Program-made: the position numbers and the translations under genes
Assembly (NCBI GenBank): GCA_037189525.1
Contig: JBBCJC010000005.1
Location: forward strand, 96,001-160,000
Direction of reading: 5' to 3'
From: Gemmatimonadales bacterium
Lineage (GTDB): Bacteria; Gemmatimonadota; Gemmatimonadetes; Gemmatimonadales; GWC2-71-9
DNA: 64,000 bases
Shown: piece after piece, positions 1 to 3,364 of the stretch
How positions within the stretch are numbered: position 1 is the first letter of the stretch
Layout of the letters: each line of letters starts with the position of its first letter
Notes under the pieces: generated by a model
What the model was told of the DNA's origin: nothing
The model's database searches: none
What the model saw: only the letters and a program-made list of their open reading frames with translations

Positions 1-1063
1 TCGGAGTGTAGTTCGCCGTCGGGCGAGTATCGAAGTCGGCCTGGGTGACGTCACTGCCGCCGTCCCCGGGCTGATCGATGTGCGAGAACGCCACGACCGT
101 TTTGAGCAGAGCGCCGTCGTTGAAGCGGCGATCCCAGCGAACGGTTCCGCTCTGCCGGGCGTAGGGCGCCCCATCGCGGTAGCTGTCCGAGCGCGTCACA
201 TTCAGGTCGGCACGGAGACCGTTGTTGCCCCAGCTGTTGCTGGCCGTGCCGAGCACCCGGGCGTAACCGAAGCGACCGCCCTCGATGAAGACCTCACCGG
301 TGGGGCGATCGGTCGGTGAGCGCGTATAGGAACTGACCACGCCGCCGATGGCATCGCTGCCATACAAGGCCGAGCCCGGGCCTTTGATGACCTCGACCCG
401 TTCCGCGCCCGGGAGATTGACCTCGTAGAGCGCATTGTGATTGAAGAAGCCGGTCGACCGAGTCGGCACGCCGTCTTCGAGAAAGGCGTACATCGGCTTG
501 GTCGTGATCGGCTGACGGATGGCCGTGAAGTGACCCTCGCCGCTCAGATTGGCCACCCACGCTCCCGGCACCCGCGCCACCACCTCAGCCGGATGATGCG
601 GCAGCGCCTGTTCGAGGACGCTCCGATCGACGACTCCGACGCTGGCCGTCGCCTCGGACCGGGACTGGGCCTCGCGCGAGACACTGACGACTACGTCGGA
701 CAGAACAACCGCATCGTTGTTGAGCACGGCATCGACCACCGCGACAGCGCCGCCCGTTACCGAGACCGGGATCCGAGCCGTCTTCCAACCAATGGCCCGG
801 ATCGCGACCGTGTAGTCGCCCGCGGGAATCCCCTCGATCCGATAGCGACCATCGGATGACGTCTGCACCGACTTACCGCTGCCGATGACCTGCACCAGGG
901 CGGCGACGACCGGCTCCTTCGCGGCACCGGTCACCCGCCCTTCCACACCTCCTGTTTGCTGCGCATTGGCGGAGCCCATCATGGCCGTTGCCACGATGCC
1001 CGCCAGTCCCAACGCCCGAAGGATCCGACCGGCTCTCGACCGGTCACTCCCAAATCCCATCAT
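1..1063 (-). CDS. TonB-dependent outer-membrane receptor, N-terminal part (runs off the left edge; absent from the ORF track)
   Basis: Manual minus-strand translation from ATG 1063: signal peptide (MMGFGSDRSRAGRILRALGLAGIVATAMMGSANAQ), carboxypeptidase-regulatory-like domain (GRYRIEGIPAGDYTVAIRAIG), plug motif ERVEVIKGPGSALYGSDAIGGVV; GGAG SD at 1073-1076. Confidence 0.9.
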   Translation of the reverse strand, partial: MMGFGSDRSRAGRILRALGLAGIVATAMMGSANAQQTGGVEGRVTGAAKEPVVAALVQVIGSGKSVQTSSDGRYRIEGIPAGDYTVAIRAIGWKTARIPVSVTGGAVAVVDAVLNNDAVVLSDVVVSVSREAQSRSEATASVGVVDRSVLEQALPHHPAEVVARVPGAWVANLSGEGHFTAIRQPITTKPMYAFLEDGVPTRSTGFFNHNALYEVNLPGAERVEVIKGPGSALYGSDAIGGVVSSYTRSPTDRPTGEVFIEGGRFGYARVLGTASNSWGNNGLRADLNVTRSDSYRDGAPYARQSGTVRWDRRFNDGALLKTVVAFSHIDQPGDGGSDVTQADFDTRPTANYTP

Positions 1064-1114
1064 ATCCCCATGCTCCACTGCGGCCCCGTATCATCGGCGC
1101 CAGTGAATAGCGAA

Positions 1115-1138
1115 CTGCCCACCCGAAACGAGGGGCAG
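1115..1138 (-). terminator. Hairpin (possible attenuator) between leader ORF and TBDT
   Basis: Minus strand CTGCCC-CTCGTTTCGGGT-GGGCAG followed by TTCGCTATT. Confidence 0.45.
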
Positions 1139-1169
1139 CCAGATCTGTCAGCTGTGGTTTACCTGCGAA

Positions 1170-1583
1170 TCAGGCGACAGGAGGAGCGTGCGACGGGGGG
1201 AGGAGAAACCGGGGACGCGCAATCCGCTCGGGAGCGGCGGCGGCACCGCGGACGGACACGGACGTGGTCGGCGCCTCGGCCAGTACGACGCCAGGCTCCG
1301 GCCCGAGACCGACCGTTGCGGCACCGGTACAGGCGCCGATGCAGTGACAGTTCGCGTGAGTGCCATGCGAACCATCGGCATCGGACGACGACTCGCTCTG
1401 GGACGCATTCGCATGCTCGGCGTGGCCGCCGTGGTCATGCTGTCCGGATTGTCCTTGGGCGACCAGCCACGGTGTATCGACCGGGCACGGATCGATGAGG
1501 GGAATGATGGTTCCCGCCACCGGTGGTGAAAGCACCACCAGGAGGCTCGCCAACCATCGCCACTGCCGAAGCCGCCCGATCAT
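1170..1583 (-). CDS. DUF2946/CruR/CutF-like exported leader protein with His-rich linker, CxCxxxC and C-terminal PPSHAPP
   Basis: 137 aa; N-terminal hydrophobic segment, HDHGGHAEH, CHCIGAC, Pro-rich C-terminus; directly upstream of a TBDT. Confidence 0.75.
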   Translation of the reverse strand: MIGRLRQWRWLASLLVVLSPPVAGTIIPLIDPCPVDTPWLVAQGQSGQHDHGGHAEHANASQSESSSDADGSHGTHANCHCIGACTGAATVGLGPEPGVVLAEAPTTSVSVRGAAAAPERIARPRFLLPPSHAPPVA

Positions 1584-1589
1584 CCTTTC

Positions 1590-1618
1590 AAGGTAACAAA
1601 TGAGCGAGAAGGGGCCAA
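1590..1618 (-). promoter_or_regulatory. sigma70-like promoter, probably leaderless, for the leader ORF
   Basis: TTGGCC-N17-TACCTT (with TG extension), 6 nt before ATG 1583. Confidence 0.5.
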
Positions 1619-1635: not shown

Positions 1636-2265
1636 CTACGGTGCGGACGACGGGCGCCGAGGCCGCAAGACCAGCCGGCTGGCCAGCAGAACGGCCAGAA
1701 TGGTGGCGTACACGAGCGGCTCGCTCACGTCCCGCTTGACCAGCCAGAAGAAGTGGAGCACCGCGAGCGCGGCGGCGAGATAGACGAGCCGGTGGAGCCG
1801 CTGCCAGCGCCGGCCGAGCCGGCGCACCATGGCGTTCGGCGAGGTCACTGCCAGCACGGCCAGGATCAGAAAGGCGAGAAAGCCGACCAGGACCCAGGGA
1901 TGCTCCACGATGTCGGCGCTGATGTCCGCCACCGAAAGGCGATGATCGAAGACGGCGTAGATGGCCAGATGGAGCGTGGCGTAGAAAAAGGCAAAGAGAC
2001 CGAGCGGGCGGCGGAGCCGGATCAGCACGGGCTGACCGAGCAGGCGGCGCACGGGTGTCACCGCCAGCGTCACGAGCAGAATGACCAGCGCCGAAAGCCC
2101 GGTGGTGTGGGTCAGCGTCTTGACGGGATCGGCGCCCAGATCCTGCCGGACGAGTCCGTGAATCAGCCAGGCCGCCGGCGCCAGGCAGGCAACCCAGAGC
2201 GCCGGTTTGAGGACCCATCGCACCAGCGCCGGCAGGCTGCCGGCCCTCCGCACGACATCGCTCAA
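1636..2265 (-). CDS. msrQ: MsrQ heme-binding membrane subunit
   Basis: [15 protein letters not shown] and WQRLHRLVY motifs; TTG start overlapping the msrP stop (exact start uncertain). Confidence 0.93.
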
Positions 2266-3176
2266 TAGTTCACTCGCAGATCGAGACCGCTGTAGAGCGA
2301 AGCCACCTGATCGGCATATCCGTTGAACAGGAGAGTCGGCCGACGGAAAAATTCGCCCAGCCGCCGCTCCGACTTCTGGCTCCAGCGCGGATGCGACACG
2401 TCCGGGTTGACGTTGGCGTAGAAGCCGTACTCCTGCGGAGCTGCCACGTTCCAGGTCGTCGCCGGCTGCGATTCGGAAAAGCGGATTTCGACGATGCTCT
2501 TGCCGCCCTTGAAGCCGTACTTCCACGGCACCGTGAGCCGGAGCGGCGCGCCGTTCTGGTTGAGCAGCGGCTTGCCGTAGATGCCGGTTGCCAGCAGGGT
2601 GAGCGGATGGCTCGCTTCATCCAGACGCAGCGCCTCGACGTAGGGCCAGTCGAGGGTCCGGCTCCGCTGCCCGGGCATCTGCTTGGGATCGTACAGCGTC
2701 GCGAACTCCACGAACTTCGCCTTGCTGCCGGGTTCGAGTTTCCGGATCAGATCACCCAGCCGAATGCCCTGCCAGGGAATCACCATCGACCAGGCCTCGA
2801 CGCAGCGCATCCGGTAGGTGCGCTCGACGACGGGCAGGCCCTTGAGCAGGTCGTCCAGGTCGTACGTGGCCGGGCGTTTGACCTCACCGGCCACCTTGAC
2901 CACCCATGGCTTGGTGCGGAGCGAGCCCGCGTTCCGGGAGGGATCCTCTTTGTCGGTGCCGAACTCGTAAAAATTGTTGTAGGTCGTCACGACGTCGTAC
3001 GGCGTCGGTTTGTCCTCGGGTTGACGGCCCTGTAAGGTGCGCGCCTGCACCATCCCGGGAGCGGCCAGCGCCGCCATGGTCACCCCCGCGGTTTTGAGCC
3101 ACTCGCGCCGGGTGTGATAGAGCCCTTCGTCGGTGATGTCCGAATCGGGAATGTCTGGCGCTCGACGAATCAGCAT
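2262..3176 (-). CDS. msrP: MsrP periplasmic methionine sulfoxide reductase (molybdopterin)
   Basis: Tat motif [49 protein letters not shown]. Confidence 0.96.
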
Positions 3177-3263: not shown

Positions 3264-3276
3264 CGCGAATTTCCAA

Positions 3277-3364
3277 CGGTGCGAGTGAGATTCGAACTCA
3301 CGAGACCCTTAGGAGGTCTGCCACCTTTCCAGGGTGGTGCCTTCAACCACTCGGCCATCGCACC
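3277..3364 (-). tRNA. tRNA-Ser(GGA)
   Basis: GGTGCGATGGCCGAGTGGTTGAAGGC...CCACC-CTGGAAA-GGTGG, long variable arm, GTTCGAATC T-loop; CCA not encoded. Confidence 0.96.

Follow-up and report, generated by a model that had tools for sequence, protein, structure and literature searches.

Two leader proteins of cis-acting copper switches, CruR and CutF, and one class of arrest peptides are the closest described counterparts of the leader gene analyzed here, which heads an operon for a TonB-dependent receptor (TBDT) in a Gemmatimonadales bacterium. The gene lies in a window of 64,000 nucleotides (nt), the whole stretch of DNA that was analyzed (contig JBBCJC010000005.1, positions 96,001 to 160,000). 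CruR (Bp2923; DUF2946, PF11162) of Bordetella pertussis leads cruR-bfrG(crtA)-bp2921, has a Cys motif 45 residues ahead of a terminal Arg-Ala-Pro-Pro (RAPP) motif, a spacing in which little change is tolerated, and has homologues that head genes for CopC, SCO, PCuAC, MbnP/H, and AhpC-TSA (PMC9426467). Arrest by CruR has been demonstrated (PMC12992588). CutF of Rhodobacter capsulatus belongs to cutFOG (PMC8456105, PMC9973294, bioRxiv 10.1101/2025.02.05.636593). It has a CxxxC motif (PMC9973294), ends in the Arg-less tail PEPEGPPPRL, stalls at PPP although it lacks RAPP (bioRxiv 10.1101/2025.02.05.636593, PMC8456105), and acts through unmasking a Shine-Dalgarno (SD) sequence (bioRxiv 10.1101/2025.02.05.636593); CutF-like proteins are not all copper-specific (PMC9973294). 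The RQH-class arrest peptides include ApdA, ApdP, and uDF_RQH_Lachnospirales, which carries HAPP (PMC10987492, PMC12992588), and one HAPP peptide arrested in vitro in a manner dependent on its His (PMC10987492).

We consider it probable that the conserved leader at the head of this receptor operon is a copper switch that acts in cis in the manner of CruR and CutF, wherein the stalled state would keep the receptor on and copper would release the stall. The original prediction had the 137-amino acid (aa) open reading frame (ORF), its His and Cys residue numbers, the CHCIGAC motif, and the terminal HAPP correct throughout, and the TBDT that it placed 106 nt downstream is borne out by Plug, barrel, and CarboxypepD_reg domains and an ATG at 1063. 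The features of the locus are these.

1170..1583, minus strand: leader ORF, 137 aa (P0001), CruR/CutF-like (ORF call, DUF2946 match, family alignments)
1512..1583, minus strand: export-type N-terminus, approximately residues 1 to 24, basic then hydrophobic (sequence, conserved pattern, predicted helix)
1485..1487, minus strand: Cys33, the first conserved Cys (invariant in 141 of 141 aligned members)
1356..1439, minus strand: His-rich linker, H49 to H76 (H54 column at least 90% conserved)
1329..1349, minus strand: CHCIGAC, predicted metal site with C79, C81, and C85 (C79 and C81 invariant; G83 and C85 at least 90%)
1179..1199, minus strand: PPSHAPP, predicted arrest motif in C-rich codons (P129, P134, and P135 invariant; A133 at least 90%; pairing tests)
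1064..1169, minus strand: intergenic region of 106 nt with two predicted hairpins, the second of which (1111-1072) contains GGAG 1076-1073
1065..1076, minus strand: candidate ribosome-binding sites of the receptor, GGAG (1076-1073) and GGGGA (1069-1065) (GGAG kept in four of five aligned loci; fold)
1..1063, minus strand: 5′ part of the TBDT gene (Pfam domains; nearest structures PqqU/YncD, E 5e-30)
1590..1595, minus strand: candidate −10 box TACCTT, 6 nt before the leader ATG (TAnnnT box enriched before family ATGs)
1613..1618, minus strand: candidate −35 hexamer TTGGCC, 17 nt from the −10 box (similar hexamer in three close homologues)
1636..3176, minus strand: upstream gene pair that we take to be msrQ/msrP-like (Pfam ferric reductase-like transmembrane and molybdopterin oxidoreductase domains)

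The anatomy of the protein and its spacing are evident from the alignments. Cys residues occupy positions 33, 79, 81, and 85, His residues positions 49, 51, 54, 57, 73, and 76 as well as 80 and 132, and HAPP spans residues 132 to 135. An export signal, as had been proposed, is supported by the sequence, by a predicted helix at residues 2 to 17, and by a pattern kept across the family. The spacer from C85 to H132 measures 46 residues, in agreement with the approximately 47 anticipated between the Cys cluster and the stall site. Among the 26,131 six-frame segments of the genome, CxCxxxC-43..49-x[AG]PP-stop is found in two, the leader ORF and one paralogue, which is rare enough to make the motif combination more than a chance match. 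AlphaFold2 applied to 141 sequences returned a pTM (predicted template modeling score) of 0.30, with N-terminal helices only and no compact metal site, and the chain after residue 47 is predicted to be unstructured. The leader is predicted to stall the ribosome, to bind and respond to metal, and to control the TBDT.

When homologues were gathered, as the original prediction had proposed, the Cys cluster, the xAPP-stop ending, the spacing, and the linkage to TBDTs were all found to be conserved. CHCIGxC and PPSHAPP are preserved in four close homologues, and among 60 related genomes the leader precedes all seven orthologues of the receptor, with HAPP in two cases, TAPP in four, and NGPP in one. 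A species collection contributed 40 receptor-orthologue loci, 14 of them titled Gemmatimonadota and 13 of these with upstream DNA; the leader is present at all 13, some copies being broken by frameshifts, and three of the 13 repeat loci of the 60-relative set. The records nearest to the receptor (92% and 64%) carry the titles Gemmatimonas or Gemmatimonadales, in line with the Gemmatimonadota-type origin that had been proposed. The leader pattern occurs at only three of the 26 loci that are not titled Gemmatimonadota, several of which are without upstream DNA. At two such loci, L052 and L059 of Rhodospirillaceae, the receptor-BNR-TlpA genes stand directly after a multicopper-oxidase-type gene and the leader is absent.

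A search profile built from 18 leaders, all Arg-less, has matches at three places in this genome, in 153 of the 401 phylum genomes, and in 1534 clusters at E ≤ 1e-3. Of the best 150 matches, 139 fit CxCxxxC-spacer-xxPP, and the last Cys is separated from xAPP by 45 to 47 residues in 124 of these. The motif reads TAPP in 101 of the 139, NAPP in eight, HAPP, NGPP, and IAPP in three each, LAPP and QAPP in two each, and TGPP and SGPP in one each, with 15 off-register by pattern. Thus, the xAPP part of the proposed HAPP variant is conserved, but HAPP as a family signature is rejected: it is a minority form, and His is not the defining residue because the family norm is TAPP. RAPP occurs in none of the 139 fitting proteins and none of 94 locus leaders, an absence that is partly by construction because the search profile is itself Arg-less. 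In 141 aligned members, C33, C79, C81, P129, P134, and P135 are invariant and the G83, C85, A133, and H54 columns are at least 90% conserved. The conserved CxCxxxC had been recognized correctly, but the invariant C33 had been overlooked. Where a family member has a name in its source, the name is "hypothetical protein", and NCBIfam has no family for the leader. In the literature searched, which mostly excludes subscription papers, no Gemmatimonadota or TAPP-type leader was found described: Gemmatimonad* was not found in the supplementary files of PMC9426467, nor Gemmatimonad* or TAPP in the searched supplement of PMC12992588, one file excepted, and the small supplementary files of PMC9973294 gave no matches, although its full CutF-like list could hold family members. 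On sequence grounds, the leader family is a large, unnamed Gemmatimonadota branch of CruR/CutF-type leader genes. In many family-f1 genomes (L107-L118) the leader-receptor cassette lies just upstream of pyrR-pyrB-pyrC, and the receptor type and following genes vary at this pyr site, a fixed site with exchanged cargo.

The relation to DUF2946 that had been proposed stands in part. DUF2946 is the top Pfam match of the leader (E 0.11, 13.6 bits, profile positions 2-117 of 117), but the score is under the PF11162 gathering cut-off of 23.7 bits. Those locus-derived homologues that match, among 14, score 10.5 to 18.4 bits. Of 141 members, 31 likewise match DUF2946 best among Pfam families at E ≤ 0.1 and two match the family that ranks second, and the atlas neighbors of the leader are two Gemmatimonadota clusters followed by DUF2946 clusters at 0.95 and 0.94. 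The leader has CxCxxxC, which contains the CxxxC of CutF, rather than the CxxC of DUF2946, and ends in HAPP rather than in a terminal RAPP; its 46-residue spacing corresponds to the approximately 45 residues from Cys to arrest motif in DUF2946. Three loci from Rhodospirillaceae and others that have the same receptor subfamily carry CxxC-46-RAPP leaders of 22.1 to 27.2 bits, one of them above the cut-off. At the Rhodospirillaceae locus L047, a receptor of this TBDT subfamily (42%) is accompanied by a DUF2946 CxxC-46-RAPP leader (27.2 bits), with SCO and PCuAC downstream. By these comparisons, the leader would work like CruR and CutF, yet it is not a formal member of PF11162. Elsewhere in the genome of the analyzed leader, a ZnuD-like receptor and a His-rich lipoprotein are preceded by a classical CxxC-45-RAPP leader (L187:435-836; G000:C2:1098034-1098435, plus strand), which escaped the PF11162 search of the genome; therefore, the Arg-less form is no lineage-wide replacement.

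The leader resembles CruR in being the first gene of a TBDT operon, with an export signal, an early semi-conserved Cys, a Cys motif approximately 45 residues ahead of a terminal xAPP, a long intergenic region, a stretch of C in excess of G at the 3′ end, and CopC, SCO, PCuAC, MbnP/H, and AhpC-TSA as family neighbors. It differs in that the family has CxCxGxC instead of CxxC, that H, T, or N replaces the required Arg and a Pro is conserved three residues earlier, that rare Pro codons are used whereas the RAPP of CruR has frequent codons, and that the transcript is likely leaderless whereas the CruR start site lies 45 bp upstream (PMC9426467). In addition, the leader codons are predicted to pair with the downstream start region, the PF11162 score is below the cut-off, and this receptor is not assigned to CrtA or OprC. 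With CutF, the leader shares a Sec-type signal, CxxxC, an Arg-less proline tail, and, as predicted here, masking of a downstream ribosome-binding site. As in the published description of CutF-like proteins, it is shorter than 150 aa and has a signal, a Cys/His motif, and PP within the last 15 residues (PMC9973294); the position of such proteins at the head of a metal (copper) homeostasis operon is found at the family level, the leader's own operon comprising the TBDT and BNR genes only. The cargo here is an importer whereas that of CutF is a detoxifying oxidase, the tail is xAPP instead of GPPP, the polarity is likely opposite, and the predicted masking strand is formed by the arrest codons of the leader instead of an intergenic stem-loop.

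RQH-class peptides also place a terminal x-A-P-P behind a localization signal, and HAPP arrested translation in vitro in one member. They differ in that they precede sec/yidC genes and sense translocation (PMC10987492, PMC12992588), and ApdA and ApdP accept no change of Arg (PMC12992588). The first position of the motif, Arg in RAPP-type peptides, is His here and Thr in most members. The searched passages of PMC10987492 and PMC12992588 contain no TAPP, NAPP-type, or NGPP form. Because HAPP arrest (PMC10987492) and the CxxxC of CutF (PMC9973294) are already published, both features are less new than the original prediction implied.

The codons of the predicted arrest motif are unusual. In 70 of 94 leaders, CCT or CCA encodes the first Pro of xAPP, compared with 12% of genome Pro codons (long ORFs of three contigs of this genome), and synonymous positions close to the motif are poor in G (26.5% vs 40%). 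Complementarity between these codons and the next start region was assessed for the 57 of 94 leaders in which the ATG is signal-bearing and the SD is better than −5.5 kcal; SD strength was part of the choice of starts. Pairing between the start region and the 18 nt that run from Ala to the stop reaches −16.0 kcal/mol within a leader's own locus, compared with −12.6 kcal/mol for swapped regions, a z of −10 that, like the p values, is overstated because the genomes are related. For control segments between −93 and −9, |z| does not exceed 2.04; the pairing signal is highest at the SD and start windows. A version of this comparison with uncurated starts at 93 loci (−13.5 vs −12.5 kcal) was discarded, as wrong starts had been picked, including at this locus. 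In folding models that assume a ribosome footprint, opening the start region costs 12.5 kcal on average and 9.2 kcal once the predicted stall site is covered, with a drop of more than 1 kcal in 42 of the 57, compared with four of 57 for a control block. Recoding Ala-Pro-Pro to common codons gives a lower opening cost in 28 cases and a higher one in six. For the copy in this window, the modeled cost falls from 15.5 to 9.6 kcal with the stall site covered; the pairing partner of the arrest codons is GGGG 1069-1066, and the unpaired probability of the AUG rises from 0.39 to 0.67. C also exceeds G from 1261 to 1141 (49% vs 28% at 1221) and Rho is present in the genome, so that Rho termination as in CruR may act too.

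The claim that the leader has its own promoter fares less evenly. It is consistent with TTGGCC-17-TACCTT and with an enriched TAnnnT box, which lies 5 to 8 nt before a candidate ATG in 46 of 78 leaders; the background is 106 of 1983 for ORFs of the genome and 88 of 16,265 for internal ATGs. On the other side, a consensus promoter scan returned no site at its thresholds near the leader, TTGGCC/TACCTT included. A consensus terminator scan found no terminator-like site between msrQ and the leader, so read-through from the msrPQ-like pair may occur. The leader transcript is likely leaderless, judging from the TAnnnT position.

Downstream genes were surveyed at 80 loci picked from the 153-genome match list, where 81 leaders in 78 loci have a downstream ORF that passed the filter. 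The first downstream ORF has a Plug domain for 57 of the 81 leaders, and with one split TBDT the count is 58; of the 121 second and third ORFs, 18 were removed (pyr genes, repeats, doubtful frames) and five added, giving 108 scanned. Copper-handling families (CopC, CopD, PCuAC, SCO, CtaG, MbnP, di-haem CCP_MauG, and multicopper oxidase) are present at 23 of the 78 loci, a count that includes three loci identified by CCP_MauG alone and that stands without a baseline from random TBDTs. Nickel, cobalt, and zinc families were not found among the 189 ORFs scanned downstream of leaders. A third paralogue (L106:7020-7409; G000:C3, minus strand), with CxCxxxxC and YATAPP, heads MbnP, a di-haem CCP_MauG protein that we take to be MbnH-like, and CopC. 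The copper set is the neighbor set reported for CruR homologues (PMC9426467). At L126, L167, L153, and L121, the leader directly precedes an Asp/Asn beta-hydroxylase or fatty-acid hydroxylase gene followed by PCuAC, SCO, or CtaG. At L115, L173, L181, and L182, leaders head an outer-membrane protein of approximately 350 aa that starts GHAPIGVMG(D/E)H and matches Phenol_MetA_deg at best in Pfam, a candidate unrecognized copper channel.

The switch that we favor would operate as follows. The leader would be translated from a leaderless transcript, and the ribosome would pause at His-Ala-Pro-Pro, at which point the Cys cluster would have just left the exit tunnel and the signal would sit in the translocon. 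In this state, the ribosome would cover the C-rich codons, preventing both their pairing with the receptor start region and Rho loading, and with this pause, when copper is scarce, the receptor and the BNR-repeat lipoprotein would be produced. Copper binding by C33, C79, C81, C85, and the histidines would cause folding that pulls the chain and releases the pause, whereupon the receptor start region would be masked and the operon turned off. This CruR-like polarity is favored because the cargo consists of uptake and oxidase assembly functions.

A number of observations weigh against such a switch. The main doubt is the missing Arg: CruR needs the Arg of its motif (PMC9426467, PMC12992588), Arg is irreplaceable in ApcA, ApdA, and ApdP (PMC12992588), and TAPP is absent from the main text of both RAPP surveys (PMC12992588, PMC10987492), though a HAPP peptide arrested and CutF stalls without RAPP. 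Profile-profile comparison with three RAPP leaders is weak (probability 66-70% over 20-30 columns). In the copy studied here, GGAG 1076-1073 remains in a local hairpin (unpaired 0.08 and 0.11) and recoding Ala-Pro-Pro did not reduce the opening cost (16.4 kcal), so the modeled switch appears only partial. As for the metal, the few genes scanned include no copper family at 55 of 78 loci, and the leader's own operon contains no recognized copper gene. The solved structures nearest to the receptor are the pyrroloquinoline quinone (PQQ) transporters PqqU/YncD (E 5e-30), and CrtA is not among its 30 PDB matches; in NCBIfam, OprC TIGR01778 is not among the best 25 of 33 matches, none of which reached the cut-off. 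The receptor's substrate is thus inferred from the family only, because its own operon is without a copper gene and its nearest relatives are PqqU/YncD.

Other arrangements of the same parts deserve consideration. The polarity could be that of CutF, with a weak di-proline pause relieved by EF-P that periplasmic copper prolongs, thereby unmasking the start region and turning the operon on. CutF, too, has CxxxC, the Arg-less tail PEPEGPPPRL, and SD unmasking (bioRxiv 10.1101/2025.02.05.636593, PMC9973294, PMC8456105), the export signal is kept in the leader family, the start-region pairing resembles that of CutF and SecM, and one paralogue stands ahead of a multicopper oxidase. That paralogue (L105; G000:C5:364754-365128, minus strand) is a HAPP leader whose downstream genes encode a SusC/SusD-like pair and a multicopper oxidase of the Tat type, a cargo that fits CutF polarity better, and its polarity is possibly opposite. 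Most cargo, however, belongs to uptake and cytochrome-oxidase assembly (TBDT, CopC/D, PCuAC, SCO, CtaG, MbnP), the set of CruR homologues, and the spacing fits the 45 residues of CruR whereas the distance from C73 of CutF to PPP is shorter (PMC8456105), so we regard the CutF polarity as unlikely. Rho-dependent termination might instead be the main output, as in CruR, with the C-rich codons serving as the Rho loading site and the start-region pairing being secondary. The excess of C over G, the depletion of G at synonymous positions, the presence of Rho, and the GGAG hairpin that stays closed in the model agree with this proposal, but a Rho site would not explain why leaders pair better with their own than with swapped start regions. 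Masking and Rho outputs are compatible and follow identical logic; Rho as the main output seems to us quite unlikely.

Regulated arrest might be absent altogether. The product would then be a metal-binding Cys/His peptide that is secreted, and its normal translation and termination would open the next start by translational coupling. Because the pairing segment extends to the stop codon, it would be covered by any ribosome that terminates, and the motif lacks the Arg that tested RAPP peptides require (PMC12992588). A chaperone role, however, leaves unexplained the invariant P129, P134, and P135 with their varying synonymous codons as well as the fixed tunnel-length spacer and the predicted disorder past residue 47, which makes coupling alone very unlikely. 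There is an even slimmer chance that the same switch answers another signal (nickel, zinc, cobalt, or periplasmic thiol redox) and that the receptor imports a PQQ-like or other cofactor. The His-rich linker, the proximity of the receptor to PqqU/YncD, the adjoining msrPQ, the TlpA-like genes in related operons, and the CutF-like proteins that are not all copper-specific (PMC9973294) point in this direction, but the metal-related neighbors are copper families only, and the ZnuD-like receptor of the genome has a different, RAPP-ending leader.

The remaining genes frame the locus. The receptor is 783 aa long from ATG 1063, 106 nt past the leader stop, with a second in-frame ATG at 1060, and its gene extends beyond the window to G000:C5:94712. 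GTG 1078 was discarded as its start because it sits on the conserved GGAG. The gene after the receptor encodes a BNR-repeat lipoprotein (L001:9405-10709, minus strand, just beyond the window) and is followed by pyrR. The lipoprotein is the usual partner of this receptor subfamily, and its conserved AACPCC and CPH motifs are a possible metal or redox site. A TBDT-BNR operon of this kind was not found in the literature searched (bioRxiv 072470, in part). On the other side, the msrQ/msrP-like pair, which ends 52 nt from the leader ATG, is a neighbor outside the switch. A tRNA-like stretch (Ser-type by eye) lies at 3272-3362 (minus strand), between msrP and a topoisomerase I gene.

The principle of the copper switch is already in print, and therefore the leader adds a variant and not a new kind of switch. 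It is possible, though we put this forward only tentatively, that the phylum uses an Arg-independent arrest code, Pro-x-x-[Thr/His/Asn]-Ala-Pro-Pro in slow codons, whose codons would mask the next ribosome-binding site on a leaderless mRNA, and that this code would serve copper operons only while classical RAPP serves the zinc-type receptor, such that two stalling chemistries would be sorted by metal in one cell. More broadly, on the favored reading, copper sensing at the post-transcriptional level would come to include a large family that has no annotation, from a phylum that is common in soil and sediment. Systematic mutagenesis of ApdA and ApdP says that xAPP arrest does need Arg (PMC12992588), and the more than 1000 sequence clusters would constitute a natural library on this question. 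The leaders may also point to TonB receptors that otherwise have no assignment, in this case the PqqU-like subfamily accompanied by a BNR lipoprotein, as candidates for copper import.

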